A model generated the notes under the pieces. That model was not told the origin of the DNA and made no database searches. It worked only from the letters and a program-made list of their open reading frames with translations. Positions 4,141 through 55,393 of a DNA stretch of 64,000 nt are shown here, in pieces (position 1 is the first letter of the stretch; the number at the start of each line of letters is the position of its first letter). Both the position numbers and the translations under genes were made by a program. The stretch is from Acidobacteriota bacterium (lineage in GTDB: Bacteria > Acidobacteriota > Polarisedimenticolia > J045), in contig JALOKP010000013.1 of NCBI GenBank assembly GCA_025456425.1, positions 480 to 64,479 of the forward strand, in the 5' to 3' direction.

Positions 4141-4254
4141 GCTCGATTCGTCACGCGTCGCGTGCGCGCACCGCGGGTCCCGCGCCGGGCCATCCGCCCG
4201 CCGCGAGGCAAACCGCGAACTCGCGAGGAATATAGGTTTTCCGCCGTCGAAGGG

Positions 4255-5178
4255 TCAACGCGCCGGGTCGCCCCGGACCCCCCTGACCAGGGCCGCGGCG
4301 GCCTCGTAGCGGACGTTCTGGTTCGGGTCGTCCTTGGCGATCACCCCCAGGACCTCGCGGGCCCCGGGGATTCCGGCCTGCGCGACGATCCTGACCGCCG
4401 CGGCCCGGACCTCGAACTCGGGGTCGGTCCGGGCCAACCGGACGACGGCCTCCTGGCAGGCCTCGACCCGCTCGTCGATCTCGAGGCCGCCCCCTGCGTC
4501 GCCGATCCGGCCCCGAGCCATCGCCCCACCCGCCGCGGCGAGGGCCCGCAGTCGCCGCTCGGGGTTGGCGTCCCTCATTCGTTCGAGCAGGGTCGGGACC
4601 CAGTCCTCGTCGGCCATCACGAGCTGCCCGGCGATCACGAGACCCGCATCGATCAGCCAGGGGTTCCGGCCCGAGATCCAACCCAGCACGCGAGCCTCCT
4701 GCCCGGCCGCGACGTCGTCCTGGTGCAGCACGATCTCGCGCACGGCGGTGAGCAGCGCCTCCCCTCCTTCGGGCGGCAGCGGGATCCGCGCACCCGCGAA
4801 GCCGGCCGGCATGTAGAGGTCTGGCTTGGGCTGTCGGCCGCGGGAATCGACCCAGGGGGTGAGGACGTAGATCGCGGTCTCCCCGTCGCGGGCCTCGAAG
4901 CGCGCCGTGTCGGGCTGCCGCATGAGGTTGTTGCCGCGGAAGGCGACGCGCAGCGTCTCCGGCAGCCCGCCGCCGCGCAGGACCTCTTTCAGCGCCAGGG
5001 TCAGCTTGCCGTCGACGCGGAGCGCGGTCGCGAGGACGACGACCGGTCCGGCCGACAGGCGCTCGAGCAACTCCGCACCATCGCGCGGGGCGGAAGGCTC
5101 CTCGTCGGTCGCGGTCGCGCCGGCCGCCGGAAGGAGCGCGAGCGGAAGCGCAAGCAGCGCGGCCGCGGCCGCCCGCAC
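4255..5178 (-). CDS. Secreted HEAT-repeat protein
   Basis: C-terminal HEAT-like repeats (DPEFEVRAAAVRIVAQAG...AKDDPNQNVRYEAAAALV). The inferred GTG start gives a signal peptide, RAAAAALLALPLALLPAAGA/TATDE. The start is uncertain; the ORF extends to 5307. Confidence 0.6.
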   Translation of the reverse strand: MRAAAAALLALPLALLPAAGATATDEEPSAPRDGAELLERLSAGPVVVLATALRVDGKLTLALKEVLRGGGLPETLRVAFRGNNLMRQPDTARFEARDGETAIYVLTPWVDSRGRQPKPDLYMPAGFAGARIPLPPEGGEALLTAVREIVLHQDDVAAGQEARVLGWISGRNPWLIDAGLVIAGQLVMADEDWVPTLLERMRDANPERRLRALAAAGGAMARGRIGDAGGGLEIDERVEACQEAVVRLARTDPEFEVRAAAVRIVAQAGIPGAREVLGVIAKDDPNQNVRYEAAAALVRGVRGDPAR

Positions 5179-5195
5179 CAGGCGGCGGAGGGCGG

Positions 5196-5777
5196 TCAGG
5201 CGCGCGGCGCGCGGCCCTGGGACCCCTGCCCCGCACCGAGCACGGCGAAGCCGATCGCGATCAGCAGCGCGCCGGCCAGCACCTTCCAGTCCTCGATCTG
5301 GGTCCACAGCCCCACCGGGTCCAGGATCGCCTGGGCGAAGTCGCTCGGCGCGTAGAGGGCGAGCATCGCCGTGCTGAGCACGAGCCCGATCGCCGCTCCG
5401 ACGGCCGCGCCGGCAAGGATACCGACCGTTGCGCGGGCTGTCGGCCCCGCCCCCCCGCGCCGCCGCCGCGCCGGTGCCGCATCCGGCCCGGGCTCGGAGG
5501 TCGAGAAGGCGCTGGAGTCGAACGGCTCGAACGGCGCTTCCGCGGCCGACGGTGCCGCTGCCCAGGCCGGCTCGGGCCGGGGGACCTCGGCCGAGAACGA
5601 GATGCCGCCGTCCTCGAACAGGGAGTTTTCGAACGGATCCGGCTCCGGCACGCGGGCGAACGGCGTGCCGTCCCGGCGATCCGGCGGCGCGGCCGCCGGG
5701 GGGACGGGCGCAGGGTAGGTCCCGGCCCGGGCGGAGACGAAGCGCCGGCGCGTACCGCGCGCGAAGGCTGCGCTCAC
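5196..5777 (-). CDS. Hypothetical membrane protein (disordered acidic N-terminal half, two C-terminal TM helices)
   Basis: These are the last 193 codons of the 5196..7214 ORF. The GTG at 5775-5777 overlaps the TGA of the upstream mglA-like gene (GTGA). TM segments are ILAGAAVGAAIGLVLSTAMLALY and VLAGALLIAIGFAVLGAG. Confidence 0.55.
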   Translation of the reverse strand: MSAAFARGTRRRFVSARAGTYPAPVPPAAAPPDRRDGTPFARVPEPDPFENSLFEDGGISFSAEVPRPEPAWAAAPSAAEAPFEPFDSSAFSTSEPGPDAAPARRRRGGAGPTARATVGILAGAAVGAAIGLVLSTAMLALYAPSDFAQAILDPVGLWTQIEDWKVLAGALLIAIGFAVLGAGQGSQGRAPRA

Positions 5778-7141
5778 GGCGCGAGTTCCAGCCGGATCAC
5801 GAGGCGGAAGCGGCGCGTCCCGGCCGCCGTCGCGAACTCGAGCGGCACCAGGATCTCCTGCGGGTCGCCGACCTCGAGCCGCGTCGGCTCGACCGCGTCG
5901 TCGGCGAACAGCGCGTCGGCTGCGCCGACCTCGATCATCCGGGCGGAAGCGTGCGCGACCGCCGTCGGCACGACCGCGTCGAGCGTCGCCCGGTCGATCT
6001 TCACGGTCGACGTCGGCGGCGGCGCGGGCGGGGCGAGGCCAAGCACGTCCTCCTCCTCGATCACGGCGGCCACGGCCGGGCGCTCGGACCGCGAGGGCAG
6101 GTGGACCGGCTCGGAGTCGAAGGTGGGTGCGGCCGGACGCGCCGGGGCCTCGGCCGCGGCGCGAAGCACCGCATGCGGCGTGGCCAGCGTCGGCATCTCG
6201 GCCCGCGCCGGGTCGCCGGGAACGACGAAGTCGAAGCTCCCCGGGGGATCCGCGAGCGGGGCGGCCGAGGCCGCGGCGGCGAAGGTCTCGGCCGGCGGGA
6301 CGGCGGCCGGCGCGGAGGCCGCGGCAGCGGCGGGATCGACGTAGATCTTGCCGCTCGGCATCGCGAAGACCGCGGCCGGGTCGGCCGCGGCCGGCGTCTC
6401 GAAGCTGGAAGAGGCCTCGTCGAAGAGCGGTACGCCGGCCGCCGCGGCCACCGGGGTCTCGATCGTCGGCGCCAGCGGGTCGGGCGCGGCGATCGCGGCC
6501 GGCTCGGCGGCGGGCTTCGCCGGCTCGCGGCGCGGGCCCCCCGGGCGCTCGGCGCCGTAGCGCTCGTTGAGCTTGAGCAGCACCAGCTTCGTGATGTGGC
6601 GAAGCGTCTCCTGGACGCCGACGCCGGTCGTGGCAATCGCCTCGTAGAACGGCGCGTTGTACTTGTTGAGCCGCTCGTTGATCGGTTCGATCGGCATCGA
6701 GTTGGGCAGGTCGCGCTTGTTGTACTGGATCACGTGCGGGGTGTCTTCGAGCGACATCCCGTGCGCCGCGAGGTTCTCCTCGAGGTTGCGGAACGAGTCG
6801 AGGTTGGCGTCGACCATGTTTTCCTGGCTGTCGGCGACGAAGACCACGCCGTCCGCACCCTTGAGCACGAGCCGCCGCGTCTCGTTGTAGAAGACCTGGC
6901 CCGGCACCGTGTAGAGCTGGACCTTGGTCTTCATCCCCTGGATCTGCCCCAGGTCGATCGGCAGGAAGTCGAAGAACAGGGTGCGGTCGCTCTTCGTGGC
7001 CAGCGACAGCATCTTGCCGCGCACCCCCTGCGGCATGTGGTCGTAGATGAACTGCAGGTTGGTCGTCTTCCCGCAGAGGCCGGGACCGTAGAACACGACC
7101 TTCGTCGTCAGTTCGCGTGTCGAGTAGTTGAAGACAACCAT
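5774..7141 (-). CDS. mglA: MglA-family Ras-like GTPase with a ~260-aa Pro/Ala-rich C-terminal extension
   Basis: N-terminal ~195 aa is near-collinear with Myxococcus MglA as recalled: FYGPGLCGKTTN, DRTLFFDFLP, LYTVPGQVFY, QYNKRDLP. Start at ATG 7141 (MVVFNYSTRE). The remainder is low-complexity plus a ~70-aa terminal domain. Confidence 0.85.
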   Translation of the reverse strand: MVVFNYSTRELTTKVVFYGPGLCGKTTNLQFIYDHMPQGVRGKMLSLATKSDRTLFFDFLPIDLGQIQGMKTKVQLYTVPGQVFYNETRRLVLKGADGVVFVADSQENMVDANLDSFRNLEENLAAHGMSLEDTPHVIQYNKRDLPNSMPIEPINERLNKYNAPFYEAIATTGVGVQETLRHITKLVLLKLNERYGAERPGGPRREPAKPAAEPAAIAAPDPLAPTIETPVAAAAGVPLFDEASSSFETPAAADPAAVFAMPSGKIYVDPAAAAASAPAAVPPAETFAAAASAAPLADPPGSFDFVVPGDPARAEMPTLATPHAVLRAAAEAPARPAAPTFDSEPVHLPSRSERPAVAAVIEEEDVLGLAPPAPPPTSTVKIDRATLDAVVPTAVAHASARMIEVGAADALFADDAVEPTRLEVGDPQEILVPLEFATAAGTRRFRLVIRLELAP

Positions 7142-7316
7142 GTCCGGCGCTCCACGGGAGTGGCACGCGCGGGCCGGCCCCGTCGAGGGGTCCTCCCGCG
7201 GGCGGGGCAAACATAGGGCTCCCGGTGCGGCGGTGTCAAAACGGGGGCGACCAGCTTCGAAAGGCCGGGGGACCGTGGCGGCCCTCCCGGCCCCCCGCCG
7301 GCCGGCCGGCCCGCGC

Positions 7317-9214: not shown

Positions 9215-10225
9215 GTGAGCGGACCCTTCCTTCCCCCGACCGAACCCGCCGCCGCCCCCGAGCCGCCCGGGATCCCGGCCCCGGTTTCGCCCGCACCCGA
9301 GCCCCCGCTGCGACGACGGCCCCGCGTGCCGCGGCTGGCACTCGCGATGTTCCTGCTGACGGTGCTGACGACGCTCGACGTCGGCGTCTCGCTCTCGACC
9401 GGCGCCTCGATCCCCTTCGCCCTCGCCCGCGGCGAGATCGGGCTGGGCGATGCGCTGGCCCTGCTGCCGTCCGGGATCCCCTACGTCCTCGCGCTGCTCG
9501 GGTTCTTCGTCGCGCACGAGATGGGCCACTACCTCGCCTGCCGGCGCTACGGGGTCGACTGCACCGTCCCGTACTTCCTTCCGGTCCCGTCGGTCGTCTC
9601 GCTGATCGGGACCCTCGGGGCCCTGATCCGGATCCGGGGCCGGATCCCGACCCGCCGCGCGCTGTTCGACATCGGGATCGCCGGTCCCCTGGCCGGCTTC
9701 GCGGTGGCGATCCCGCTGCTGGTCGCCGGCACCCTGGCCGCGCCGCTCGGGCCGCCGGGCGCGGCACCCCGGGGCACGATCGTCTTCGGCGATTCGCTGC
9801 TCACCTGGGTGCTGGGCTGGCTGCTGCGGCCCGACGCACGCGAAGCCTCGCTGTTCCTGGACCCGATCTACCTGGCGGGCTGGGTCGGGGTCTTCGCCAC
9901 GGCGCTGAACCTGCTGCCGGCCGGACAGCTCGACGGCGGGCACATTCTCTACGCCCTCTCGCCCCGCGCCCACGCGCGGATGGCGTGGCTCGTTCCCGCC
10001 TTTCTGATCGCACTCGCGGCGACCCGCGTGCTGCGCTACGGCGAATGGGAGGCGGTGCTGCTGTGGGTGATCTGGTCGGCGCTGATCCTGCTCTTCGGTC
10101 GCCGGCACCCGCCCCCCGAGGCCTGGGAGCAGCGGCTGGGGCCAGGGCGCCTCGCGCTGGCGCTGGGCGCGCTGGCGATCCTGGTGCTGTGCTTCATGCC
10201 GGTCCCGCTCTCTTTCGTACCCTGA
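9215..10225 (+). CDS. M50-family site-2 metalloprotease (membrane)
   Basis: HEMGHY zinc motif (FFVAHEMGHYLACRRYG), multiple TM segments, and NLLPAGQLDGGHI (the second M50 motif). A GTG start after GAGGAGG is inferred; an alternative ATG (MFLLTV) lies downstream. Confidence 0.75.
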   Translation: MSGPFLPPTEPAAAPEPPGIPAPVSPAPEPPLRRRPRVPRLALAMFLLTVLTTLDVGVSLSTGASIPFALARGEIGLGDALALLPSGIPYVLALLGFFVAHEMGHYLACRRYGVDCTVPYFLPVPSVVSLIGTLGALIRIRGRIPTRRALFDIGIAGPLAGFAVAIPLLVAGTLAAPLGPPGAAPRGTIVFGDSLLTWVLGWLLRPDAREASLFLDPIYLAGWVGVFATALNLLPAGQLDGGHILYALSPRAHARMAWLVPAFLIALAATRVLRYGEWEAVLLWVIWSALILLFGRRHPPPEAWEQRLGPGRLALALGALAILVLCFMPVPLSFVP

Positions 10226-12491
10226 GCGCCGCCCCCTCCGCCTCGCCCTCTCCCCGCACCTCGATCGCGCCGTTCCGCGCGCGCGCGGCGAGGCCGCCGT
10301 CCCGCGCGGTGATCAGCCACGGCACGCGGCGCGCCGCGAGCCGCGCCAGCGTCTCCGGGTGCGGGTGGCCGAAGCGGTTTCCCCGCCCCGCCGAGATCAA
10401 GGCGGCACCGGGGGCCCCCGAACGCAGCAGCGCGTCGCCGGTCGAGCCCTTCGAGCCGTGGTGTCCCACCACCAGGATCGCCGTGCGCGGCAGGAGGCCC
10501 CGCGCCAGCAGTTCGCGCTCCGCCGCCAGCCCGGCGTCGCCCGTGACCAGGGCGTCGAGCCCGCGCCCCAGGAGGTGCACCACGAGCGACCGCTCGTTGT
10601 CCCGCACCAGGACCCCCGGCCTGGGGTGCAGCACGAGGGCCCGGACGCGTCCCAGTTCCAGCCCCTCGCCAGCCGCTACCGGGACGAGCGGCACCCCCCG
10701 CCGCGCCGCCGCCGCGTAGAGCGGCCGCAGTTCGGGATCGTCGAGCAGGTTTGCGCCGACCACGAGCCGGCGCGGCGGTGCAGCAGCAAGGAGGTCCATC
10801 GCTCCGCCGGCGTGATCGCGGTCGTTCTGCGTCAGGACCAGCGCGTCGAGCCGCGCGACGCGGCGCGCGCGCAGTGCATGGATCAGCGCCCGCGTCCCGT
10901 CTCGGGCGCGGTCGTCCGCGGCGTCGATCAGCAGCGCGCGGTCTCCGTCGCGCACCAGCACCGCCTGCCCCTGCCCCACGTCGAGCACCTCGAGCGACGC
11001 GCCCGGCGGCGCGGCCGGTGCGGGGCGCAGCGGCCAGGCGAACGACACCGCTGCGGCGAGTCCCAGCGCGAGCGCACGGCGCCCGCGCGCGGCCAGCCAG
11101 GCGAAGCAGAGCGCCTCGTGCAGGACCAGCCAGGCCAGGCCGGCCGGAGCCGCGATCCGCCCCGATCCCGGCCAGGCCGCGACGCCGCGCGCGATCGCCA
11201 GGAACCACTCCGCGCCAAGCCGTGCCACCGCCTCCGAGACCGTCGCCACGGGCGAGCCGGCGGGCAGCAGGACCGCGAGCCAGCCGCCGAGCAGCGCGGG
11301 GGCGGCCGCGGGCGCTGCGAGCAGATTCGCGACCGGCGACCAGACGCCGGCGCAGCCGGTCATCTCGACCAGGATCGGCCAGGTTGCGAGGATCGGGCCG
11401 AAGAACAGCCGCAGCCGGGGCCCCCATCCGGTGCCGCGCGCTCCGATCACGAGCGCCAGCGTCGCTGCGACCGTCAGCGCGAAAGAGAGCGAGCGCGCCA
11501 GCGCCGGGTCGAGCGCCAGCAGCAGCGCCGCCGCCCCGGCCAGCGCGGCGGCCGGCGAGGCCCCACGTCCGACCAGCCGGCCGGCCCGCGCGAAGAGCAC
11601 GGCGATCCCCGCGCGCCGGACCGGCGGCTCGGCGGGCAGCAGCACCATCGCGGCGCAGGCCGCAGCCAGCGCCACCGCGCGCCGCCCGCGACCGTGCGGG
11701 CCGCCGAGCGGGGCCAGCGCCCAGGCCGCAGCGAGCACGATGACCCCGACCTGTACCCCCGACACGACCGCCTGGTGAGCGAGCCCCGAGGCCCGCAGCG
11801 CCCCCCAGTCCTCCGGGGCCAGCGCGTCCCGTTCCCCTGCGACCATCGCCAGCAGCAGCGCCCCGGCGTCGTCGCGCGCAGGGGCAGGCGCGGGGGAGGG
11901 CGCGAGCGGTTCCGCGGGCGGATCGGCGGCGTGCACGAGCCGTGCGGTGGCCCGCGCGAGAAAGGCCGCGCGCGCGGCCGCGGCGAGCGCCTCGAGCCGG
12001 GCCAGCCCGCGCGGCGGGGCGAGCACGACGATCGACGAGGCCGAAAGGGCTCGCGGCAGTCCGCTCCCCTCGGCGCGACGCAGCGGGATCTCGAGCGTGG
12101 CCCCGGGGCGCGCCCCGTCGGGGAACCGGTCGAGCCAGTCCTGCCCCGTGCGCGGCACGAACACGCGCTCCGGCCCGGCCCCACTCAGCACCAGCAGCGT
12201 GCCGCCGCCCAGCGGGCGCGCGTCGACCCAGCGGCCCCGCGCGGGACCCGCGTCGGTGGCGGCATCCAGGCGCGGGGCGGCTAGCGCGCCGAGCGCGCCG
12301 CCGGCCAGCGCGAAACCGGCCAGGGCCCAGCCCACCGCGGACGTCCCGGCGCGCCGAACCGCACACCAGGCCGCGAGCCCGGCCGCGAGCGCGAGCGGCC
12401 CCGCGGCGGAGGCCGGGACGGCGGGGCCGCAGGCCGCGCCGGCCCAGAGCGCGGCGGCGAGCAGCAGCAGGAGTCGGGCGGCCTGTCCCAC
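10194..12491 (-). CDS. comEC: DNA internalization-related competence protein ComEC/Rec2 (with C-terminal metallo-beta-lactamase domain)
   Basis: Polytopic N-terminal/central region, then an MBL pattern: VLDVGQGQAVLV...LVLTQNDRDHAGG...VGHHGSKGS...GNRFGHPHPETL. Confidence 0.85.
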   Translation of the reverse strand: MGQAARLLLLLAAALWAGAACGPAVPASAAGPLALAAGLAAWCAVRRAGTSAVGWALAGFALAGGALGALAAPRLDAATDAGPARGRWVDARPLGGGTLLVLSGAGPERVFVPRTGQDWLDRFPDGARPGATLEIPLRRAEGSGLPRALSASSIVVLAPPRGLARLEALAAAARAAFLARATARLVHAADPPAEPLAPSPAPAPARDDAGALLLAMVAGERDALAPEDWGALRASGLAHQAVVSGVQVGVIVLAAAWALAPLGGPHGRGRRAVALAAACAAMVLLPAEPPVRRAGIAVLFARAGRLVGRGASPAAALAGAAALLLALDPALARSLSFALTVAATLALVIGARGTGWGPRLRLFFGPILATWPILVEMTGCAGVWSPVANLLAAPAAAPALLGGWLAVLLPAGSPVATVSEAVARLGAEWFLAIARGVAAWPGSGRIAAPAGLAWLVLHEALCFAWLAARGRRALALGLAAAVSFAWPLRPAPAAPPGASLEVLDVGQGQAVLVRDGDRALLIDAADDRARDGTRALIHALRARRVARLDALVLTQNDRDHAGGAMDLLAAAPPRRLVVGANLLDDPELRPLYAAAARRGVPLVPVAAGEGLELGRVRALVLHPRPGVLVRDNERSLVVHLLGRGLDALVTGDAGLAAERELLARGLLPRTAILVVGHHGSKGSTGDALLRSGAPGAALISAGRGNRFGHPHPETLARLAARRVPWLITARDGGLAARARNGAIEVRGEGEAEGAALRVRKRAGPA

Positions 12492-12524
12492 GCCGACAGC
12501 GTGCGGCCCGGCGCGCGCCGGCGC

Positions 12525-13205
12525 TCAGGATTCCGGCGGTGTCCGTCCCGGGGCCGGGAGCGGCCCCTCGGCCAGCGCCAGCAACGTCAGGTCCGGCAGC
12601 CGGAAGCGCCGGCGCAGCAGGCGGTCGCGCAGCGCGACCCGCGTGCGCTCGCGCACCTCCGCCGGCATCCCGCCCGCGTAGGGTGCCACCAGCCGCTCGA
12701 CGTCCTGTTCCAGCGCCAGTCGCTCGTCCAGCGAGAGCGTCGCGGCGCAGCCGTCGACCAGTTCGCGCTGGAGCGCCGCGACGCGCTCGGCCGGCAGCCC
12801 ACCGCCGGCGTCGCGCACCAAGCGCTCGAGCACGCCCGCCGCCAACCCGCGCGGCGCGGCCGAGGCCGCGAGCTGGGGCTCGGCGCGCCGTGCCAGCGTC
12901 GCGGCATCGATCGCCGGCGGGCTCCCCTCCCGCCGGCCGACCAGCGCCTCGCGCCAGGAGCGCTCGGCCTCCTCGATCGCCGGCTCGCAGTAGGCCAGCG
13001 AGCGCGGCCGCCGCGGCGGGCGCCGCTCGGCCGCCTCGCGGAAGACCTCTTCCAGCGTGTCGAGCACGAGGAAGAGCGGGAGCCCGCGCCGGTGCCAGGC
13101 CACCACCCGGGCCAGGTCCTCGGGCGAGAGGATCAGCGGCCGCTCGCGCAGCGCGCGGAACCGCTCCTCCACGGCGCGGACGAAGTGGACCTCCTCGTCG
13201 ATCAC
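12525..13205 (-). CDS. Hypothetical protein
   Basis: Coding-like composition. Its ATG overlaps the stop of the upstream phosphatase gene (4-nt overlap). No motif recognised. Confidence 0.45.
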   Translation of the reverse strand: MIDEEVHFVRAVEERFRALRERPLILSPEDLARVVAWHRRGLPLFLVLDTLEEVFREAAERRPPRRPRSLAYCEPAIEEAERSWREALVGRREGSPPAIDAATLARRAEPQLAASAAPRGLAAGVLERLVRDAGGGLPAERVAALQRELVDGCAATLSLDERLALEQDVERLVAPYAGGMPAEVRERTRVALRDRLLRRRFRLPDLTLLALAEGPLPAPGRTPPES

Positions 13206-18769: not shown

Positions 18770-18773
<4 letters not shown>

Positions 18774-19492
18774 CGCGTCGCATCTCCGGTGGGCTCGGCC
18801 GGCCGGCGAGGCGCCGCCGCGCTCTCGCGCAGCAGACGCTCGAGCAGGTCGGGGACCACCTCCCAGGCCACCTCGCGGACGATCTCGGGTGCCAGTTCCT
18901 CCAGCCGCCGGCGGACCTCGTCGCGGATCGCGGCCTCGAGATCCGGCACGGAGGCTGCGTCCACCGGCGCGGGGACGAGGTCGAACTCGTCGTCCCCCGG
19001 CAGCGGGACCCGCGCGTCCCAGGGCGGGGGCAGGTCGAGCGGAGCGTCGAACAGCGGCTCCGGCGGCGGGGCCAGCTCGGCCGCGGGCGGAGCGTCCGGG
19101 GTCGGCTCGGGAGGGGGCGCGGGCGGGCTGGCGAGCAGCAGCTCCTCCACCCGTCGCAGCAGCTGCCGCGGCTCGAAGGGCTTGGCCAGGTGGCCGACCG
19201 CGCCGCAGCGCGCCGCGCGGTCCTCGTCGAACGGCTCGAAAGCCCCGAACAGCAGCACGATCGGTACGCCGCGCAGCGTGGGGTCGCGGCGCAGCGCCTC
19301 CGCCACCTCGTAGCCGGTCAACTCGGGCATGAGCACGTCGCAGAGCACCAGGTCGGGCCGCCGGCCGCGGGCCAGTTCGAGCGCCTCGCGCCCCTGGGTC
19401 GCGCCCACCACGGTGTGCCCGGCCGCGCCGAGCACGCTCTGCACGACCTTCCGGATCGTCGTGCTGTCGTCGGCGATCAGAATCGTGGCCAT
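18770..19492 (-). CDS. Response regulator (receiver domain + Pro-rich linker + conserved C-terminal helical tail)
   Basis: ILIADDSTTIRKVV...DLVLCDVLMPELTGYEV...LAKPF is a CheY-like REC domain. Start at MATILIADD. The stop overlaps the valS ATG (ATGA). Confidence 0.8.
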
Positions 19493-19510
19493 CGAGCGGA
19501 CCCCCGGGGC

Positions 19511-19551
19511 GAAAAAAGAACGGAACCGTAACACCCCCCTCGGAGGGGTGT
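19511..19551 (-). terminator. Possible intrinsic terminator after the B12-binding mutase subunit
   Basis: 7-bp GC stem ACACCCC/GGGGTGT (19531-19551). On the minus strand it is followed by ...UUCUUUUUUC (19511-19520). The U-tract is 10 nt from the stem, so the call is weak. Confidence 0.4.
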
Positions 19552-31641: not shown

Positions 31642-32952
31642 TCAGGGTGCGGCGGCGGCCGACTTCTCGAGGGACGTCAGGGCCCGCTCGATCGACTGCG
31701 GGGGCAGGCCGCCGGTCGGGCCGGCCTCGGCGATCCGGTAGCGATCGGGCAGGACCTCGTAGCGGTAGGGGCGGCCCCACGGGTCGCGGGCCAGGGAGCG
31801 CGGCAGGAACCCGCGCTCGACCACCTCGTCCAGCGTCTCCGGCCAATCGGCGGTGTCGAGGTAGTACACGTGGAGTCCGCGTTCGACCCGGACCATGCGG
31901 GCCGAGCTGGTCGCGCGGCGGACGTCCTCGAGCCCCGCGGTGCGGCTGAGCCAGGCCGAGGAGGCTGCCGTCGCCGGGAGCGGCAGCGCGGGTGCCCCCG
32001 GGAAGAACGACCGGAGCAGCGTCTGCCCGGCGGCGAGCGCCCCCAGGAGCGCAAGGGCGCCGATCACGAAGCCGGCGACCCGCGCGGCGAGCGGGGAGCG
32101 CAGGAGCGCCGGGGCGGCGGAGGCGGGCACGGCCGCGCTGCTCGCCACCGGCTCAACCATCTTGGCCTCGACCAGGTGGGCGAGCGTCTTGAACGCCACG
32201 AAGCGCCCGAACCCCGCGAGTTCGGCGACCTCGCCGACGGTGCGCTGCCCGTCGATCCAGCGCAGCAAGGTCCGCTCACGCTCCCCCAGCCGCGGGCCCC
32301 CGTCTCCCTCGTGGAGCGGGTCGGCCGGGATGAAGCCGAAGTCCAGGTCCTGCTCGTAGACGGTCCCCTTCCCCTCCTTGGCCTCGCTCCCGGTCGCGAG
32401 AATCCCCGCCGCCCGCGCGGTCGGCTGCAGCACGACCTCGGCCGAGGGGATGACGCGCTCGATCAGCGGCCACTCGTCGACCATCTGCGCGCCCTGCATG
32501 AGCAGCGTCTCGCAGGCGATCGGGTCGACGAACTCGCGGTCCCACGGGCTCGTCACACCGGGCTGGAAGTCGTATTCGCCGTCCCGCCAGCGGAACAGCT
32601 CGTAGACCGTTTCGCTGACCTGCAGCGTCAGCAGCTGCCGGATCGTCTCGCGGTCGATCCAGCGCTTCTCGACCAGCAGGTGGCCCAGCCGCTGGAGCGT
32701 GGCCTCCTGCTCGCGCAGGGCGGCCTCGAGCCGCTGCTCGGTCAGCTTGCCGGAGCGCAGCAGGTACTGACCGATCCGCCCCTCCGGCGCCCGCAGCGAG
32801 GTCTCCGCGGAGACGACCCGGCCGTTCTCGAACCCGACCTTGACCTGCTCCTCGCCGCGCTGCAGGACGAGCAGCCCCGTCTTCCGCTGCAGCCCGATCA
32901 GCTGGAGGATGTCCGCCAGCGAGAAGTCGCCGAGCGTTCCGGAGAGGGCCAC
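31642..32952 (-). CDS. DUF4388 (PATAN-type) / tandem MshEN-like motif / TM / GspG-like periplasmic domain protein
   Basis: N-terminus LSGTLGDFSLADILQLIGLQRKTGLLVL (DUF4388). RIGQYLLRSGKLTEQRLEAALREQ-EATLQ-RLGHLLVEKRWIDRETIRQLLTLQ. TM segment VAGFVIGALALLGALAAG. C-terminus DPWGRPYRYEVLPDRYRIAEAGPTG. Confidence 0.8.
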   Translation of the reverse strand: MALSGTLGDFSLADILQLIGLQRKTGLLVLQRGEEQVKVGFENGRVVSAETSLRAPEGRIGQYLLRSGKLTEQRLEAALREQEATLQRLGHLLVEKRWIDRETIRQLLTLQVSETVYELFRWRDGEYDFQPGVTSPWDREFVDPIACETLLMQGAQMVDEWPLIERVIPSAEVVLQPTARAAGILATGSEAKEGKGTVYEQDLDFGFIPADPLHEGDGGPRLGERERTLLRWIDGQRTVGEVAELAGFGRFVAFKTLAHLVEAKMVEPVASSAAVPASAAPALLRSPLAARVAGFVIGALALLGALAAGQTLLRSFFPGAPALPLPATAASSAWLSRTAGLEDVRRATSSARMVRVERGLHVYYLDTADWPETLDEVVERGFLPRSLARDPWGRPYRYEVLPDRYRIAEAGPTGGLPPQSIERALTSLEKSAAAAP

Positions 32953-42947: not shown

Positions 42948-44282
42948 GTGTCGAACGGACGCGGCGGCGCCGTGCGCGCCTGCCGCAGGCGAGGTACGAC
43001 AGTGGATACCTTGACGCGCTCCGGCGCGCTGCTCGTCGCCCTGCTGGCCGCTCCTGCGCTGGCGGAGCCGGCCGCGCCGCCCCTCGAGCCGCGCAGCCCG
43101 GACGAACTGGCCCGCGCGGCGCTCGCTGCGAACCCGGCGCTTTCCGCGCTCGACCAGCGGCTGGAGGCCGCCCGCGCCGCCGCCGAACCGGCCGGCGCGC
43201 TGCCCGGCCCGATGCTCGAGACGATGCTGCAGAACGTCGGGCTCGACCAGCTCACGGTGGGCGACGAGGACATGTCGATGCTCGCTGTCGAGCTGCGGCA
43301 GAGCCTGCCGAGCCCGCGCAAGCGCGCGGCGCGACGGGTCGCGGCCGACGCCGACGGCGCCCTGGTCGCGGCCGAGGCGCGTGCGCTCCGGCGCGAGATC
43401 GTGGCCGAGATCCGCGAGGCCTGGGCCGCGCTGTACGCGATCGACGCCGAATCCGCGATGCTGGCCTCGGCCGCCGAGTCGTACGAGTTGCTGTCGCAGG
43501 CGGCGGCGACCCGCTACGCCACCGGCACGACCGAGCTCGAGTCGGCGGTGCGCGCGCGGCTCGAGGCGGCGCGGCTGTCCGAGCGAGCGATCGACCTCCA
43601 GGCGGCGCGGGCGCTGGTCGCAGCGCGGCTGGAACGGCTGGTCGACGCCCCTGGCGGTCTCTCGATCCCCCCCGTCGAAGCGCTGCCCCCCGTCGACTTC
43701 CCGGCCGACGGCTGGCCGGACGAGGCGCTGCGCGAGGCCGCCCCTGTGGCCGCCGCGCGGGTCGCGATCGAGGCCGCGGAGCGGCGCGCGGCGGCGGCCC
43801 GCGAGGAACTGAGGCCGGACCTCTCCGTCGGTGGCGGGGCCGGGTACCGCGGATCGCTCGACCCGGTCCTGATCGTGCGATTCGGCATCGAGTGGCCCGC
43901 GTGGAGCCGCGACACGCTGCGCCCCCGCGTCGCCGCGGCCGAGGCCGAGGTGCGGGCCGCGCGGGACGATCTCCGGGCCGCCGAGGCCGGGACCCGGGCC
44001 GCGGCCGCGCGGGCCGCCGCGCTGCGCACGCAGGCCGAGCGCCAGCTGGTGCGGGTCCGCGAGGGGAGCCTGCCGCTCGCCAGCGCCGCGCTGGACGCCG
44101 CCCGCTCGGCCTACACCGCCGGCCGCGGCGAGCTCTCCGCCGTGGTGGAAGACCTCAATGCCTGGCTCGAGGCGCGCGTCCTGGTCGCGCGCCGCGAGGC
44201 GGACCTGTACGCCGCCTGGGCCGCGACCCGGGCCCTGGTGCCCAGCGCCGAGGACCGCGCGCTGCTCGGAGAAACGCCATGA
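42948..44282 (+). CDS. cusC: TolC-family outer-membrane efflux protein (CusC/CzcC-like)
   Basis: Signal peptide ALLVALLAAPALA and paired coiled-coil repeats typical of OMFs (NPALSALDQRLEAARAA...; LPDLSVGGGAGY...). First structural gene of the CBA operon. Start could be GTG 43002. Confidence 0.75.
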   Translation: MSNGRGGAVRACRRRGTTVDTLTRSGALLVALLAAPALAEPAAPPLEPRSPDELARAALAANPALSALDQRLEAARAAAEPAGALPGPMLETMLQNVGLDQLTVGDEDMSMLAVELRQSLPSPRKRAARRVAADADGALVAAEARALRREIVAEIREAWAALYAIDAESAMLASAAESYELLSQAAATRYATGTTELESAVRARLEAARLSERAIDLQAARALVAARLERLVDAPGGLSIPPVEALPPVDFPADGWPDEALREAAPVAAARVAIEAAERRAAAAREELRPDLSVGGGAGYRGSLDPVLIVRFGIEWPAWSRDTLRPRVAAAEAEVRAARDDLRAAEAGTRAAAARAAALRTQAERQLVRVREGSLPLASAALDAARSAYTAGRGELSAVVEDLNAWLEARVLVARREADLYAAWAATRALVPSAEDRALLGETP

Positions 44283-45585
44283 CCCGCCGCCTGCGCTCGC
44301 TCGTCCTGCTGGGCCTCGTGCTGGCCGCCGTCGCCTCCGTTCCGGGCTGCTCGCCCGGCGGCTCGGAGGCGCCTGCCGCCGCGACGCTCTACACCTGCCC
44401 GATGCACCCCCAGATCGTCCAGGACCACCCCGGCGACTGCCCGATCTGCGGCATGCGCCTGGTTCCCGCCGAGCGCGCCGGCGCGGAGCGGCGCGACGAC
44501 GGCCCGCCCGAGACGCGCGCGATCGTCGAGCCCGGCGAGGAAGGCGTCCGGCTGGCCGGCGTCCGGACGGTCGAGGTCCGGCGCGACACGATCGCGACCG
44601 CGCTCCACACCGCCGGGACCGTGGTCCCCGACGAAACGCGGATCCGCCACCTGCACACGAAGGTCGAGGGCTGGGTCGAGCGGCTGTTCGTCAACTTCAC
44701 GGGCCAGGAGGTCCGGGCCGGCGCCCCGGTCCTCACGATCTACTCGCCCGAGTTGCTGGCCAGCCAGGAGGAGTACCTGCGGACGCGGGAGACCGTGGCC
44801 CGGCTCTCGCCCTCCACGCTGCCCGAGGTCCGGCGCGCCGCCGACGAACTTCTCGCCGCGGCCCGCCGGCGGCTCGAGCTGCTCGACGTGCCGGCCGCGA
44901 CGATCGCCGCGCTCGAGGCCGGGGGCCCGCCCCAGCGAACGGTCACGCTGAGCGCGCCGGTCTCCGGCTTCGTGACCGTCAAGAACGTCGTCGAGGGACA
45001 CCGCGTCGAGCCCGGCGAGGAGCTGCTCCAGGTCACCGACCTCTCGCGGGTCTGGATCGAAGCCAGCCTGTTCGAGGCCGACATCCCGCGCGTACGGCTC
45101 GGCCAGCGCGCGGCGGTCACGCTCCCATTCGATCCGGCCCGGACGCTCGAGGGGCGGGTCGTCTTTCTCTCCCCGACGCTCGACCCGGCGACGCGGACCC
45201 TCCCGGTGCGGATTGAGTTTCCCAACCCGGGGCTGGCGCTGCGCCCCGGGATGTTCGCCGAGGTCTCGCTCGACGTGGCCGCGACCGAGGGGCTCGTGAT
45301 CCCCGATTCCGCGGTGATCGACACCGGGCGCGAGCAGGTCGTCTTCGTCGAGTCGATCGATTCGTCCTTCGTGCCGCGCAGCGTGACGCTGGGCGCGCGC
45401 GGAAACGGCGTGGTGCAGGTCCTGAAGGGGCTCGGCCGCGGCGAGAAGGTCGCCGTCCAGGCGAACTTCCTGCTCGACTCGGAGTCGCGGCTGCGGGCCG
45501 CGTTCGCCGGGGCCCAGTCCGCGCCGGCCGCCGCTCCCCCTCCCGCCCCCGCCGCGGCGGGTGGCGGGCACCCGGGCCACGCGCC

Positions 45586-45589
<4 letters not shown>
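44279..45589 (+). CDS. cusB: RND efflux periplasmic adaptor (CusB-like) with N-terminal heavy-metal-binding zinc-ribbon-like domain
   Basis: Lipobox LAAVASVPGC. YTCPMHPQIVQDHPGDCPICGMRLVP. A membrane-fusion-protein (MFP) beta-barrel/lipoyl pattern follows. ATGA overlap with the OMF stop. Confidence 0.85.
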
Positions 45590-48828
<3,239 letters not shown>

Positions 48829-48964
48829 CGGCGTGCTCCCGGGCTCGTTCGATTGCGTCGGCAGCGGCGTACTTAAAGGGCGGAGTTCCCTCGCCGAGAG
48901 CCTCCTCTCGGCTCCCGTCATCCCGACGCGCCGCGGAGGCCGGCGGGGGCCGAAGGAGACCGCC

Positions 48965-49606
48965 ATGCGATATCGATTCTCCTCAGCGGTCCTCGGTGGG
49001 ATCGTCCTTGCGGCGCTGCTCTCTGCCGCGCCCGCCACCGCGGGCGAACCCGGGCGGGTTTCGCCTCCCGGGCAGCGCGATCTCGCCGGGATCTGGTACC
49101 GCGTCGTCTATGACGGCGCCGCCAGCGAAGCGGGCGCGATCATCGTCGTGACGAAGGTCGACGCCGACACCTGGATTGCCGCGCCCGTCGTGCACATTCC
49201 GCCGCTCGTCCCACCTCCCCAGTATCCCGGCTTCCCGCCGACCGACGCCGCAGTCCCGTGGATCGTCCAGTTCCAACGGACGGGACAGAACACCTATCTC
49301 GTCACCTCGCTGTCGTACTACTCGGCGACCCAGGCTCCAGCCGGGCAACCGAAGACCGCCTGGGCCGGTGTGTGCAACGGACCGGGCATCCAGCAGGACG
49401 AGGACACGCTGACGATCGACTGGTACTGCTTCGCGTCGTGCAACCCGTGCTTCCCGGGCTGCTGGAACTTCGGCAGCCCCTACATCGCCTGCGATCCGGG
49501 GCGCCTCTGGGATCCGTTCCAGGATCCCACCGCGTTCTGTTCTGCAGTCGTCACCCCGGTCGAGTTCCGGAAGGTGCCGATGAGCGACGGGTGCGTCCCC
49601 GACTAG
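48965..49606 (+). CDS. Secreted hypothetical protein with Cys-rich C-terminus
   Basis: AAGGAG SD, ATG 48965, signal peptide LGGIVLAALLSAAPATA. The C-terminal half has 8 Cys (WYCFASCNPCFPGCWNF...IACDP...FCSAV...GCVPD). Confidence 0.55.
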   Translation: MRYRFSSAVLGGIVLAALLSAAPATAGEPGRVSPPGQRDLAGIWYRVVYDGAASEAGAIIVVTKVDADTWIAAPVVHIPPLVPPPQYPGFPPTDAAVPWIVQFQRTGQNTYLVTSLSYYSATQAPAGQPKTAWAGVCNGPGIQQDEDTLTIDWYCFASCNPCFPGCWNFGSPYIACDPGRLWDPFQDPTAFCSAVVTPVEFRKVPMSDGCVPD

Positions 49607-49657
49607 GTCGCGGCGCTCCAGGAGGGGGGCGCGACCGAGGGACTGCGTGAGATCGAG

Positions 49658-49705
49658 ATTGGTCGGGGTGCCGAGATTTGAACTCGGGACCCCCTGCTCC
49701 CGAAG
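49658..49705. repeat. attL-type direct repeat: displaced 3' fragment of tRNA-Pro
   Basis: 48/48 nt identical to 58518-58565 (attggtcggggtgccgagatttgaactcgggaccccctgctcccgaag). Confidence 0.9.
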
Positions 49706-49922
49706 AACGGCGAAACTACTTAACCTGTTGACTTTACAGGTCGCATCCCGCTCCATCCCGCTCGAGTGCGCTCGGTCCTGCAAAGAGCATTGCAAAGAGC
49801 GCGGCGCGGGGGAGGTATTCTGATCGTGCTTTCCGGGGGCGCACCTCGAGCTCGAGGGGCGGGTTTCCCGACCCGCCAGCGCCCCCGGGTTTCTCTCCTC
49901 GGGACCGCCACGGGAGGCGGAC

Positions 49923-50621
49923 ATGAAGCACACGACCATCGAGGTGCGCCCGCTGAGTATCGTGCTGCGCAGGCGGTGTCTCGCTGACCTGCGGAAGCAG
50001 CTCGAGGTGCACGTCCGCGCGTTCGTCTACCGGCCGACGCCGCCGACGGGGCTCGCCGGGACGCTGCCGATAGTGCTGCCGGATGACGCGCCGGCCGACG
50101 TGCGTCGCGCCCTGGACGCGCTCGCCGACGCAGTCTCCGGCGTCATCCTGGGCGCTGACCGGAAGGTCAAGCTCCACCACCGATACGCGGTGGCGGTGCG
50201 GCGCGAGGCCCACGAACTTGCCGGCACGGCGTTTGCGATCGAGTCCGATGCCCGCGAAGTCGAGCCGATGGGGGAGTTCCTTCGACAGAACCGAGAGGCC
50301 GCGCGTCGGCTCGGGCGGCTCCGTACCAGCACGACCGGCCGGCGGTCTACCCTGCCGACCGATGACACGTTGCGCGCGCTGGTCGCGGCGCTCGAGGCGT
50401 GGGTCCCCACGGCGCCCAGCGGGGCGCAGGCGGCGGTCGCGGCGCTCGAGCGGGGCATCCTCGCGGACTACCCGCGCACGCGGGCAGAGCACCGCGTGAC
50501 GCTCACGGGGAAGCTCGGAACGGCGCTCGCGTCGCGCGCGACGCCAGCCGGGAAGGCGCGCAGGATCATCGGCGCGTGGTTCGGCGTTGATCTCCGGAGA
50601 GTCCCGAACCCGGCGAAATAG
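49923..50621 (+). CDS. Hypothetical protein (first island ORF)
   Basis: GGGAGG SD 5 nt before the ATG. Protein-like composition, no recognised motif. An antisense ORF (49734..50492) is judged spurious. Confidence 0.5.
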   Translation: MKHTTIEVRPLSIVLRRRCLADLRKQLEVHVRAFVYRPTPPTGLAGTLPIVLPDDAPADVRRALDALADAVSGVILGADRKVKLHHRYAVAVRREAHELAGTAFAIESDAREVEPMGEFLRQNREAARRLGRLRTSTTGRRSTLPTDDTLRALVAALEAWVPTAPSGAQAAVAALERGILADYPRTRAEHRVTLTGKLGTALASRATPAGKARRIIGAWFGVDLRRVPNPAK

Positions 50622-50702
50622 ACCCCCGGCGCGGCGTTCGGTTTCGCCTACATTCGCGTCGCATCGTGCTCACGACCGGACGAAGCCGGTCTGGAGAACA
50701 CG

Positions 50703-50906
50703 ATGCAGAAGCACGACGCGGGTCCGCCTCATGACGCGCTGATCTACTCCGAGCCGCACGCGGCCCGGATGCTCGGGCTGGCGCCGGAGACCCTTCGGAA
50801 GCTGCGGTCCCGGGGGCTGATCGCGGCCGTCCGGATCGGACGACGTGTGCTCTACGAGCGGCGCGCGCTCGAGCAGTTCGTCGCCGAGATGCGGCGGGCA
50901 TCGTGA
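50703..50906 (+). CDS. Excisionase/AlpA-like helix-turn-helix DNA-binding protein
   Basis: YSEPHAARMLGLAPETLRKLRSRGLIAAVRIGRRVLYERRALEQFV is the HTH_17/excisionase-family pattern. Confidence 0.7.
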   Translation: MQKHDAGPPHDALIYSEPHAARMLGLAPETLRKLRSRGLIAAVRIGRRVLYERRALEQFVAEMRRAS

Positions 50907-51091
50907 TCCGCCCCGAGCGGTTCCGGCTCCTCGCGGCGGTCAACCGAACCATGGCCGATGCCGCGCTCGAGGTCGCGTGGTGCCACGAGCGGGACGGCGC
51001 CGCTCCCCCGGCCGCCGTCGAGACCGTCGCGAAGGCCGGCGCGGAACTGTTCAACATCCTGGCCGAGCTGCGGGAGGCCGGGGATCTGTGA
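50903..51091 (+). CDS. Small hypothetical protein
   Basis: ATGA overlap with the preceding gene and GTGA overlap with the following HNH gene suggest it is translated. No motif. Confidence 0.35.
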   Translation: MIRPERFRLLAAVNRTMADAALEVAWCHERDGAAPPAAVETVAKAGAELFNILAELREAGDL

Positions 51092-51639
51092 GCCCGACCT
51101 GGCGCCAAGTGCTCTACCGGGCCTACGCGCTCGGACACTCGGCGAAGGTGGGCGACCACGCGCCGGAGCTGTTCGCGCGGGAACGCTGGCAAGTCTGTAT
51201 CGCCCGCCCCTCGCGAGACCTGACGCTCCGGCTCGCCCGACGGATGGAGTGTATCGCCTGCGGTGAGCCGATCGCTCCGAACGGGACCGGCGATCACATC
51301 GTCGCCCGATCGCTCTGGGCCGCCCCGGAGGGGGCCGAGAATTACCTCCCGCTCTGCCAGCCGCACAACTCGAGCAAGGGGAGAAAGAACCTCCTCGCCT
51401 GGTGGCACGGCAAAGGCCTGCCACCCGCGGGGCTCGTGCCTGACCCGCTGCTGCAATTCGCGCGAGTCACCTATGCCTACGTCGCGCGGAACACTCTCGC
51501 CGACATGGACGCCCCGGCCGACGTGGTCGAGGCGCTCGAGGCGCTCGAGCTCGCGCTGCTGCCTAGCGTCGAGCACGTCACCGTGCTGCGGCAGGCGGCT
51601 ATCGACCAGGCGGCCGCCGCCCGCAAGGGGGGGGCATGA
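51088..51639 (+). CDS. HNH endonuclease domain protein
   Basis: CIACGEPIAPNGTGDHIVARSLW...ENYLPLCQPHNSSKGRKN (C-x2-C ... DH ... N ... C-x2-HN). The GTG start is inferred from the overlap. Confidence 0.7.
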   Translation: MSPTWRQVLYRAYALGHSAKVGDHAPELFARERWQVCIARPSRDLTLRLARRMECIACGEPIAPNGTGDHIVARSLWAAPEGAENYLPLCQPHNSSKGRKNLLAWWHGKGLPPAGLVPDPLLQFARVTYAYVARNTLADMDAPADVVEALEALELALLPSVEHVTVLRQAAIDQAAAARKGGA

Positions 51640-53704: not shown

Positions 53705-53825
53705 CCCTTTCAATCTTCGCGACCCCCGACCCATTTAACGCCCGGGTGCGAATTTGGGTGGGCGCGGGCTTCTCGCTCGGTCGCTGCGAAAAAACGGCGC
53801 CGGCGGCCGGCGGATCGGAGGCCCT

Positions 53826-54239
53826 GTGAGTCACGTCCAGCGTCCATGCTCGCAGCCCGGCTGCCCGGCCCTGGTCAGCCCGGGCACGGGCTCACGCTGC
53901 CCGGCCCATCGTCGGCGGGACACCCGATACCGGGACCGCGGCACCCGGCAGCAGCAGGGATACGGGGGCGCGTGGTTGGCGATCCGGGCCCGGGTGCTGC
54001 GCGAGGAGCCGATCTGTCCGTGCGGCCGGCCGGCGACCCAGGTCGACCACGTCCAACCTCTGACGCGAGGCGGGACCCACGAGCGCGGCAACCTGCAAGC
54101 GCTCTGCGCGTCGTGCCACAACGTGAAGACGAAGCGTCAAGCCGCGGCTGTTTTTTCGGGCGGAAGCCGTGAGAAGCCGCGCCCCAACCACACGCACGCG
54201 AATCCAAGAATCCGAACGGGGGCAAATCATGGGCGCTAG
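53826..54239 (+). CDS. HNH endonuclease (phage packaging-associated type)
   Basis: CSQPGCPALV...RCPAH...CPCGRPATQVDHVQPLTRGGTHERGNLQALCASCHNVKT. GGAGG SD 5 nt before the GTG. Lies directly upstream of terS. Confidence 0.8.
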   Translation: MSHVQRPCSQPGCPALVSPGTGSRCPAHRRRDTRYRDRGTRQQQGYGGAWLAIRARVLREEPICPCGRPATQVDHVQPLTRGGTHERGNLQALCASCHNVKTKRQAAAVFSGGSREKPRPNHTHANPRIRTGANHGR

Positions 54240-54675: not shown

Positions 54676-54822
54676 TGACAGCGGGTTGATCACGGCCAAG
54701 GTCCTTTTCGGCGCGTGAAGTTCTCGTCAACCGCGATCTACTTGACTCTCTTCGCAATTTCGCCCAATCTCCCCGCGCGAGCACGGAGCGACACGAGGGG
54801 GAGCTCTTTCGCGGAGGCGGCG

Positions 54823-55377: not shown

Positions 55378-55393
55378 GAATGGGAGGTGGTGT

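Follow-up and report, generated by a model that had tools for sequence, protein, structure and literature searches.

MglA, the textbook example of a Ras-like GTPase in bacteria, is regarded as a protein of one domain whose position in the cell is set by separate partners, namely MglB, RomR/RomX and effectors. What, then, is a C-terminal extension of 259 residues doing on such a protein? The question is raised by a gene, which we refer to as mglA*, in a 64,000 nt stretch (hereafter the window) of contig JALOKP010000013.1 (positions 480 to 64,479, forward strand; assembly GCA_025456425.1), from an Acidobacteriota bacterium of the Polarisedimenticolia. The initial annotation of this DNA, made from the sequence alone, had described an MglA fused to an extension of about 260 residues, and this description stands: a single intact open reading frame (ORF) of 455 codons encodes an MglA G domain, a linker predicted to be disordered and a small C-terminal tail, and the fusion is conserved in relatives. 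In one branch of the Acidobacteriota, Group-1 MglA proteins with this conserved arm, predicted to be disordered, and a tail that lacks detectable relatives are widespread; they are undescribed in the literature that we found, which includes no paper on a long MglA in this phylum. The 2014 census of prokaryotic small GTPases lists MglA proteins for this phylum, and gives those of Acidobacteria at 194–196 aa only and excluded sequences longer than 240 aa (PMC4316618), which may explain why the extended form stayed unnoticed.

A Group-1 G domain in an intact reading frame

The window has a GC content of about 73% and long chance ORFs are abundant in it, so GC content at third codon positions (GC3) was used to pick the true frames. 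On the minus strand GC3 stays at 0.90–1.00 in one uninterrupted phase from ~7120 to ~5780, switches phase exactly at 5777, where the following gene takes over, and switches again near 5180; this continuous single phase across mglA* leaves no room for a frameshift. A codon-usage gene call over the whole window gives identical coordinates, GGAG lies 8 nt 5′ of the ATG and the MVVFNYS start is common to homologues. The initial annotation had itself raised the possibility of a frameshift or sequencing error, and an artefact that joined a normal mglA to a downstream gene might be suspected from the abundance of chance ORFs and from one relative with a truncated ORF of 249 aa. It is contradicted by the GC3 phase, by the recurrence of the architecture, with differing linker lengths, across independent assemblies (among them an isolate genome, CP011806.1) and over 100 protein clusters, and by the lack of a start codon or ribosome-binding context before the tail. 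We rejected this explanation on phase and conservation, and consider its probability negligible.

The first part of the protein is an MglA G domain. Residues 3–196 align without gaps to residues 3–196 of MglA from Myxococcus xanthus (5ymx_A, E=6e-73) and to MglA from Thermus thermophilus (3t12_A, E=1.7e-68), with four MglA sequences as the only PDB sequence matches at E<1e-5. The initial annotation had called the first ~195 residues almost collinear with Myxococcus MglA, and the motifs that it quoted are found at residues 19–26, 52–59, 78–82 and 141–144. Pfam recognises only a weak Ras match (residues 48–187), NCBIfam has no specific model for the product, and residues 197–455 have no match in PDB sequences or Pfam. 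When the full-length AlphaFold model was compared with known structures using Foldseek, ranks 1–14 were MglA structures (TM-score 0.82–0.89, 57–59% identity), followed by Ras and Rab proteins at ten orders of magnitude weaker.

The signature of Group-1 MglA, as set by Wuichet and Søgaard-Andersen in 2014, consists of the P-loop, an arginine next to the G2 threonine, TVPGQ and [NT]KxD (PMC4316618). Here the P-loop GPGLCGKT fits GxxxxGK[ST], the arginine finger stands beside the G2 threonine (D52-R53-T54), G3 reads TVPGQ and not DxxGQ or GTPGQ, and G4 is NKRD; the P-loop, R53-T54, TVPGQ and NKRD positions are invariant across 114 family members. By motifs and best matches, the G domain classes as a Group-1 MglA, and the invariance of its catalytic and nucleotide-binding motifs indicates that the chemistry of a GTPase-activating protein (GAP)-assisted MglA switch is intact. 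Within the family the G domain has a mean pairwise identity of 80%, with ~58% identity to M. xanthus MglA. What sets the protein apart is its size: 455 aa here and 364–640 aa in relatives, outside the ~150–240 aa of a single-domain small GTPase.

Linker, tail and their distribution

The extension has two parts of very different character. The linker in the window (196 residues, 27% Ala, 18% Pro, net charge −13) is predicted to be disordered; family-wide its length is 101–303 residues (median 192), with a mean pairwise identity of 26% and half of the alignment columns gapped. The tail aligns without gaps at 45% mean pairwise identity, with eight positions invariant or nearly so (L411, F412, G425, I430, P433, R444, L447 and L451). 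Structure predictions, made for monomers of the full-length protein and of the isolated tail, give it a predicted local distance difference test score (pLDDT) of 91–93 as part of the whole protein and 90.6 when it is modelled by itself from its own alignment. The predicted fold is a short DALF helix packed on a long two-strand β-hairpin of ~55 aa in all, the hairpin carrying an alternating arginine/hydrophobic stretch, RRFRLVIRLEL. The terminal domain of the initial annotation is conserved, but its length is ~55–63 aa instead of the ~70 aa proposed.

Within the linker, short motifs punctuate the variable sequence in a clade-specific manner. EEEDVLGL, specific to the clade of the window (clade 1), is found in 27 of 105 family members, in 22 of these 27 together with TxK[IL]DR, the general form of TVKIDR, whose threonine is conserved, with I, L or M at +3, in the clade-1 sequences inspected. 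The sister clade (clade 2) has its own motifs, EIDxLVxEV and F[EQ][ILV]DR(GFDPEW), the latter in place of TVKIDR and without the threonine.

The search of profiles and structures that the initial annotation had recommended for the C-terminal part was negative throughout. Against the PDB, the tail model found unrelated proteins only (Foldseek, best E ~1) and the tail profile found no matching sequence, and aligning the tail profile to MglB with hhalign gave a probability of 0.2%. The Roadblock fold is an α-β-α sandwich of ~100 aa, and on these negative results the identification of the tail as a Roadblock fragment or a known fold was rejected. When the last 81 residues were run against the full library with phmmer, which has single-sequence sensitivity, 19 proteins were returned that always matched at their C-terminus; the short ones among them are fragments bearing the same linker motifs, and at this sensitivity none of the 19 places the tail in another architecture. 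The tail is thus predicted to be an autonomous domain private to the extended-MglA family, without relatives at the sensitivity used.

The best 120 homologue clusters span 275–643 aa, nearly all being at least 364 aa; those with names come from Acidobacteria metagenome-assembled genomes (MAGs), and their annotations read ‘hypothetical’, ‘GTPase domain-containing’ or, in JGI records, ‘SRP receptor beta’. The three-part architecture occurs in more than 100 protein clusters of 364–640 aa. A scan of one genome per species gave 24 loci, all in Acidobacteriota, with carriers that include the isolate ‘Acidobacteria bacterium Mor1’ (subdivision 22, CP011806.1, 640 aa), a Polarisedimenticolaceae MAG and a ‘gp22’ MAG. 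Intact ORFs at the related loci are 364–640 aa long, the tail profile matches the C-terminus in 22, and every intact ORF of clades 1 and 2 keeps the tail. Outside this pattern are L017, with its truncated ORF (249 aa, 10001–10750), L019 and L029, which run off their contigs, and the divergent L027 and L028, in which the tail is weak or unrecognised. The extended MglA is inherited vertically and specific to its lineage, being found in Acidobacteriota subdivision 22, Polarisedimenticolia and relatives.

At L007 (~11362–12891) the membrane-protein gene that follows mglA* reads through into the HEAT-repeat gene as a 509-aa ORF; this and the truncation at L017 are likely assembly or frameshift defects, and have no bearing on the window. 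Elsewhere in the phylum a Thermoanaerobaculia MAG (L030, 10001–11143, plus strand) encodes a 380-aa MglA-like protein with a 55% identical G domain, a different, coiled-coil-like C-terminal extension and none of the conserved mglA* neighbours. Given how unlike this extension is, C-terminal extension of MglA may, to judge from these sequences, have arisen more than once in Acidobacteriota.

Pfam scans of the ~59 called ORFs find no Roadblock/LC7 (MglB) domain in the window, and M. xanthus MglB (a query identical to PDB 6h5b_B) has no tblastn or phmmer match in the window or 30 related loci. Robl_LC7 is absent from the Pfam tables of the flanks of six relatives, and no Roadblock or MglB gene lies within 8–10 kb of mglA* in the related genomes (~470 kb of related flanks). 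An mglB within four genes of mglA, as in the classical module, was accordingly found neither in the window nor at the related loci examined; in a database search the same query retrieved Myxococcota proteins only. We also considered the 180-aa product of a neighbouring gene as a divergent MglB, and rejected it on its signal peptide with a lipobox-like LSPAGC and its lack of a Roadblock signal. The earlier statement that no MglB is nearby thus holds for the window and for the genes adjoining mglA* in ~22 syntenic genomes, but the conclusion drawn from it, that this is something other than the classical MglA/MglB switch, was over-stated: the residues on which MglB acts, R53 and Q82, are all retained.

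These observations bear on the idea of a built-in regulator, in which the G domain would be controlled in cis by the tail or a linker motif folding onto it, whether as a GAP-like positioner, as an exchange factor or as an inhibitor resembling a guanine nucleotide dissociation inhibitor; this would replace MglB and make the switch self-contained. The missing mglB fits this idea, as do the retained R53 and Q82, by which GTP hydrolysis is presumably still regulated, and the nearly invariant R444 and acidic DxLF motif of the tail. There is a precedent in SofG, a Group-1 paralogue that is not stimulated by MglB and for which no cognate GAP is known (PMC4316618). Yet the tail resembles neither MglB/Roadblock nor anything in the PDB, is predicted to fold confidently without the G domain, and is separated from it by 100–300 residues, which is long for a purely intramolecular regulator; MglB may, moreover, be encoded elsewhere in the genome. 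On balance we think this explanation unlikely.

Neighbouring genes and the coupled membrane protein

On the minus strand the gene order, from upstream to downstream, is comEC, an M50 peptidase gene (plus strand), hup (plus strand), der, mglA*, a gene for a membrane protein with two transmembrane (TM) segments, a HEAT-repeat protein gene, a cNMP_binding and FHA protein gene, a putative lipoprotein gene, scpA, scpB and rluB (Table 1). It is kept in ~20 genomes, down to ~45–50% full-length identity. The initial annotation had proposed a test of the order mglA–TM–HEAT–cNMP/FHA, and the block proved to be held in these genomes, with the TM gene in clade 1 only. The lineage-specific mglA*–(TM)–HEAT–cNMP/FHA–(exported protein) genes sit between the universal der and scpAB, and look like an inserted module; the adjacency of such housekeeping neighbours is itself weak evidence of a functional link.

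Table 1. Coordinates in the window of mglA*, its parts and the features around it.
Feature	Position	Strand	Details
mglA* (extended MglA gene)	5774..7141	-	ATG at 7141 to TGA at 5776–5774; 455 aa plus stop; unbroken ORF
G domain, aa 1–196	6554..7141	-	P-loop 19–26; R53 arginine finger; TVPGQ 78–82; NKRD 141–144
Linker, aa 197–392	5966..6553	-	Predicted disordered; acidic, Ala/Pro-rich; pLDDT mostly <50
Linker motif EEEDVLGL, aa 362–369	6035..6058	-	Clade-1-specific
Linker motif TVKIDR, aa 379–384	5990..6007	-	Conserved Thr in clade-1 sequences inspected
C-terminal tail domain, aa 393–455	5777..5965	-	DALF helix 409–412; β-hairpin 427–437/442–455
GTGA stop/start overlap, mglA*/TM gene	5774..5777	-	Translational coupling
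193-aa membrane protein gene	5196..5777	-	N-terminal motif RRRFVSARAGTYPAPVPP, aa 10–27; acidic Phe-rich region; TM1 118–143; TM2 166–183
HEAT-repeat protein gene	4255..5178	-	HEAT_2, E=2.8e-7; N-terminal signal-like peptide
cNMP-binding and FHA protein gene, 256 aa	3370..4140	-	cNMP_binding, 5.7e-17; FHA, 8.4e-12
Putative lipoprotein gene, 180 aa	2818..3360	-	Signal peptide ending LSPAGC; no family; conserved in clade 1
Sigma-70-like promoter	7210..7239	-	TTGACA-18 nt-TATGTT upstream of mglA*; 10/12 matches
Second promoter-like site	4229..4258	-	TTGACC-18 nt-TATATT ahead of cNMP/FHA gene

Promoter-like sites of this type number four in 8.7 kb against 0.2 expected (20-fold over shuffles). The one ahead of mglA* recurs as TTGAC[AC]-N17-18-TATGTT, 90–150 nt 5′ of the start, in 17 of 19 related loci from both clades, that of Mor1 included, with a slightly variant −10 element in two. 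From the two sites in Table 1 we predict two transcription units, mglA*–TM–HEAT and cNMP/FHA–lipoprotein–scpAB–rluB.

The initial annotation had noted that the mglA* stop codon overlaps the GTG start of a 193-aa two-TM protein, and both the GTGA and the two hydrophobic segments are indeed present; the −4 overlap occurs in all ten clade-1 genomes (the window, L001, L004, L005, L007, L008, L010, L011, L012 and L013). The products are 163–197 aa long in clade 1. A largely invariant N-terminal peptide, RRR[FY]VSxxAG[TS]YPxP, precedes an acidic, Phe-rich region of variable sequence, which leads to a cluster of Arg residues and then to two hydrophobic segments, rich in Gly and Ala and ~22 residues apart. 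The ~115 N-terminal residues of the 193-aa protein are of low complexity and, by the positive-inside rule, probably cytoplasmic. The protein has no Pfam or NCBIfam match and only 19 homologue clusters, all from Acidobacteria and none with a known domain. In clade 2 the TM gene is missing and the HEAT gene starts 16–95 nt after the mglA* stop.

This layout, a predicted disordered cytoplasmic N-terminus followed by membrane helices and encoded with an MglA, recalls GltJ, in which MglA-GTP binds to a disordered linker and MglB is recruited by a zinc ribbon (PMC11135422). The 193-aa protein has neither a zinc ribbon nor a GYF domain, contains no cysteine and shows no detectable similarity to the ZnR–GYF protein of L027. 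At the two most divergent loci, L027 (14384–15829) and L028 (11315–12337), both on the plus strand, the gene after mglA* encodes a membrane protein with two zinc ribbons, a Pro-rich linker and TM helices, with a GYF-like domain in addition at L027; the L028 gene begins 3 nt after the mglA* stop. The theme arises again at these two loci, an extended MglA preceding a membrane protein whose cytoplasmic N-terminus is disordered, and we treat it as a lead since the zinc-ribbon and GYF scores are below threshold and only two MAGs are involved. The ZnR–linker–GYF architecture is reported not to correlate with mglA outside Myxococcales (PMC11135422).

How might these parts work together? The reading that we tentatively favour, as one that falls a little short of probable, is that of a tethered switch or ‘swinging-arm’ GTPase, in which tail and linker motifs dock the G domain to partners. 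The G domain would be a normal Group-1 switch that binds GTP and GDP and hydrolyses GTP using its own R53 and Q82, but would be permanently joined to an autonomous β-hairpin tail by an acidic, Ala/Pro-rich unstructured arm. The tail and the short conserved arm motifs would form a docking or localisation module that fixes the switch to a partner, and the arm would let the G domain sweep a local volume while the tail stays docked; the Ala/Pro-rich swinging arms of the E2 chains of 2-oxo-acid dehydrogenases are a comparable flexible spacer. In the clade of the window the likeliest anchor would be the two-TM protein translated from the overlapping GTGA start, with its conserved N-terminal peptide and disordered region facing the cytoplasm, parallel to the GltJ linker that binds MglA-GTP. 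The genes mglA*, TM and HEAT would form one transcription unit, and the cNMP/FHA gene, with its own promoter, would encode a candidate regulator. Docking of the tail or the arm motifs to the TM protein or any other partner, a role in polarity or the envelope, and regulation by cyclic nucleotides are all what we infer from this arrangement.

Several observations weigh against the tethered switch, at least in this form. The tail is equally conserved in clade 2 in the absence of the TM gene, so the TM protein cannot be its universal partner, a role that must fall to another molecule; what the TM protein recognises in clade 1 may rather be the linker motifs specific to that clade. The HEAT and exported proteins are dispensable in some genomes, both being missing at L005 and L016, and synteny within a housekeeping block can persist without a functional link. 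The zinc-ribbon and GYF matches at L027 and L028, which lie just below the Pfam curated thresholds, come from two MAGs only, and the window showed no genes for type IV pili or gliding. The initial annotation had seen a GTPase tethered to an envelope module; the mixture of predicted cytoplasmic, inner-membrane and exported proteins among the neighbours fits that view, but the TM gene is missing from the whole sister clade.

That the tail is conserved in both clades, with or without the TM gene, would suit a scaffold built by self-association, in which the hairpin tail forms dimers or oligomers and the acidic arm promotes clustering, so that MglA activity is concentrated in an assembly at the pole or at mid-cell without a specific membrane receptor. 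The long amphipathic hairpin, with its alternating arginine and hydrophobic residues, is typical of strand-pairing interfaces, and low-complexity acidic Pro/Ala linkers are common in bacterial scaffold proteins. The monomer model is, however, already confident, so that a partner strand is apparently not needed, and self-association leaves unexplained both the strict GTGA coupling in clade 1 and the adjacent membrane proteins of L027 and L028. We regard such a scaffold as somewhat more doubtful than a regulator built into the chain.

A plainer account is that this is an ordinary MglA with a tolerated tail, the usual switch being run by MglB and RomR/RomX encoded elsewhere and the neighbours being syntenic passengers. 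The strongly conserved G domain with all its catalytic residues is what such an account predicts, and the genes nearby include universal housekeeping ones (der, scpAB, rluB and rpsA). A merely tolerated tail would not be expected to remain ungapped, with its nearly invariant residues, where the linkers have become unalignable, nor to be kept in every intact ORF of both clades; conservation also extends to the promoter, the GTGA coupling and the linker motifs particular to a clade. This explanation we consider improbable.

The earlier description of a secreted HEAT-repeat protein next in line is right as to the gene and its signal-like N-terminus, but the frame is 5178..4255, and the overlapping ORF 5236..4151 is spurious. 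The HEAT gene is found in ~20 genomes, and the N-terminus of its product is hydrophobic in most relatives and missing or unclear in four. The 180-aa putative lipoprotein has no detectable similarity to the exported protein encoded at the equivalent position in clade 2. Only der accompanies mglA* more constantly than the cNMP/FHA gene does. Many FHA domains prefer pT-x-x-I/L, and TVKIDR, in the form T-x-K-[I/L]-D-R, resembles such a ligand. This suggests a bolder variant, a self-sufficient single-chain polarity module in which the tail is a new regulator or anchor that replaces MglB, a lipid anchor or both, the linker threonine is a phospho-docking site for the FHA domain of the neighbour, and cyclic-nucleotide and kinase signals set the position of the GTPase on a trans-envelope complex. 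As the sister clade lacks the threonine, docking to the FHA domain is kept as speculative, and the variant as a whole seems to us a long shot, if less so than a tolerated tail.

Two genes farther away in the window encode proteins that recall partners of MglA. A 254-aa response regulator (18770–19534, minus strand) has a receiver domain, a Pro-rich linker and a conserved C-terminal helix, EIVREVAWEVVPDLLERLLRE, a layout that recalls RomR, a partner of the MglA exchange factor; a PDB search gave generic receiver-domain matches only, and the resemblance remains a lead. Some 24.5 kb from mglA*, between dnaK and a TPR/DUF1844 pair, lies the gene (31645–32952, minus strand) for a 436-aa protein with two PATAN/DUF4388 domains (E=7e-34). 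In other phyla PATAN proteins are often encoded near mglA or mglB and are tied to type IV pilus control (bioRxiv 10.1101/2021.06.11.447907; PMC4316618), and the 436-aa protein, though not adjacent, may be a partner.

Other features of the window lie apart from this system. The region ~48800–58600, at a tRNA-Pro gene, is probably an integrated mobile element: the gene for a tyrosine integrase (57408–58541) overlaps tRNA-Pro(cgg) (58520–58596), an HTH_17 excisionase-like gene (50703–50906), a Prim-Pol gene (51636–52457) and a terminase small subunit gene (54229–54675) lie upstream, and GC falls to 0.645–0.67 at 54–58 kb. On the plus strand are a heavy-metal-type resistance-nodulation-division efflux operon (43002–48828), encoding an outer-membrane factor, a CusB-like membrane-fusion protein with HMBD and an AcrB/CusA-like pump, and, just after surE/pcm, an ORF of more than 1234 aa (60295–64000) that runs off the window and contains multiple Kelch β-propeller repeats and a MopE-type copper-binding motif.

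Comparison with known systems and implications

The MglA proteins of M. xanthus and T. thermophilus (5ymx, 6h17 and 3t12) share the fold and the catalytic signature of the extended form. Canonical MglA, at 168–233 aa in the 2014 census, ends where the linker begins here and is usually encoded next to mglB (PMC4316618, Table S2); the extended form adds the 196-aa disordered arm and the 63-aa tail, and has no adjacent mglB. Length is not unique to it, as Fisuc_0226 of Fibrobacter succinogenes is a Group-1 MglA of 313 aa, yet this protein, which is not discussed in the census and which we set beside ours by description only, is encoded next to mglB (PMC4316618, Table S2). In the MglA–GltJ system the docking site for MglA-GTP is a motif within the N-terminal part of a membrane protein, which is cytoplasmic and disordered (PMC11135422), and here what appears to be a similar membrane protein is coupled to the GTPase gene. 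The 193-aa protein, whose sequence was compared with that of the L027 protein, differs in having neither a Cys-based zinc ribbon nor GYF, and no other Glt or Agl genes were seen.

SofG of M. xanthus also belongs to Group 1 and has the intrinsic arginine, but is farther from MglA in its G domain than the extended form is. It exceeds MglA in length, chiefly by short extensions at both termini, and acts together with the bactofilin BacP; the protein described here has no N-terminal extension and its tail is family-specific. A functional analogy, in the sense of ‘works like’, may be drawn with FtsZ, which has the same three-part logic of a nucleotide-dependent globular domain, a variable disordered linker and a conserved C-terminal docking element. 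The C-terminal peptide of FtsZ binds the membrane anchors FtsA and ZipA. FtsZ is nevertheless tubulin-like and not Ras-like, it polymerises, and it ends in a short peptide where the extended MglA ends in a folded domain of 55–60 aa. Eukaryotic Ras, Rab and Rho proteins are likewise small GTPases placed via a flexible C-terminal extension, the hypervariable region with its lipid anchor, but that region is 10–40 aa long and bears a prenylation or palmitoylation signal, whereas here ~260 aa end in a protein domain, with no CAAX-like motif.

In one branch of the Acidobacteriota, then, a near-frozen G domain (80% identity) has been hard-wired to a long arm and a folded tail of a new kind; the gene belongs to the core genome and has a promoter of its own. 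Were the single-chain module with FHA docking true, it would be a bacterial parallel to the C-terminal-tail targeting of eukaryotic small GTPases. A direct test could be possible in strain Mor1, a named isolate for which a 6-Mb genome record exists (CP011806.1). Should the tail prove to be a module for docking or regulation, it would define a new protein domain and a new way to localise or switch a lipid-free small GTPase, and would give a first handle on cell polarity or envelope organisation in a poorly studied, mostly uncultured phylum.

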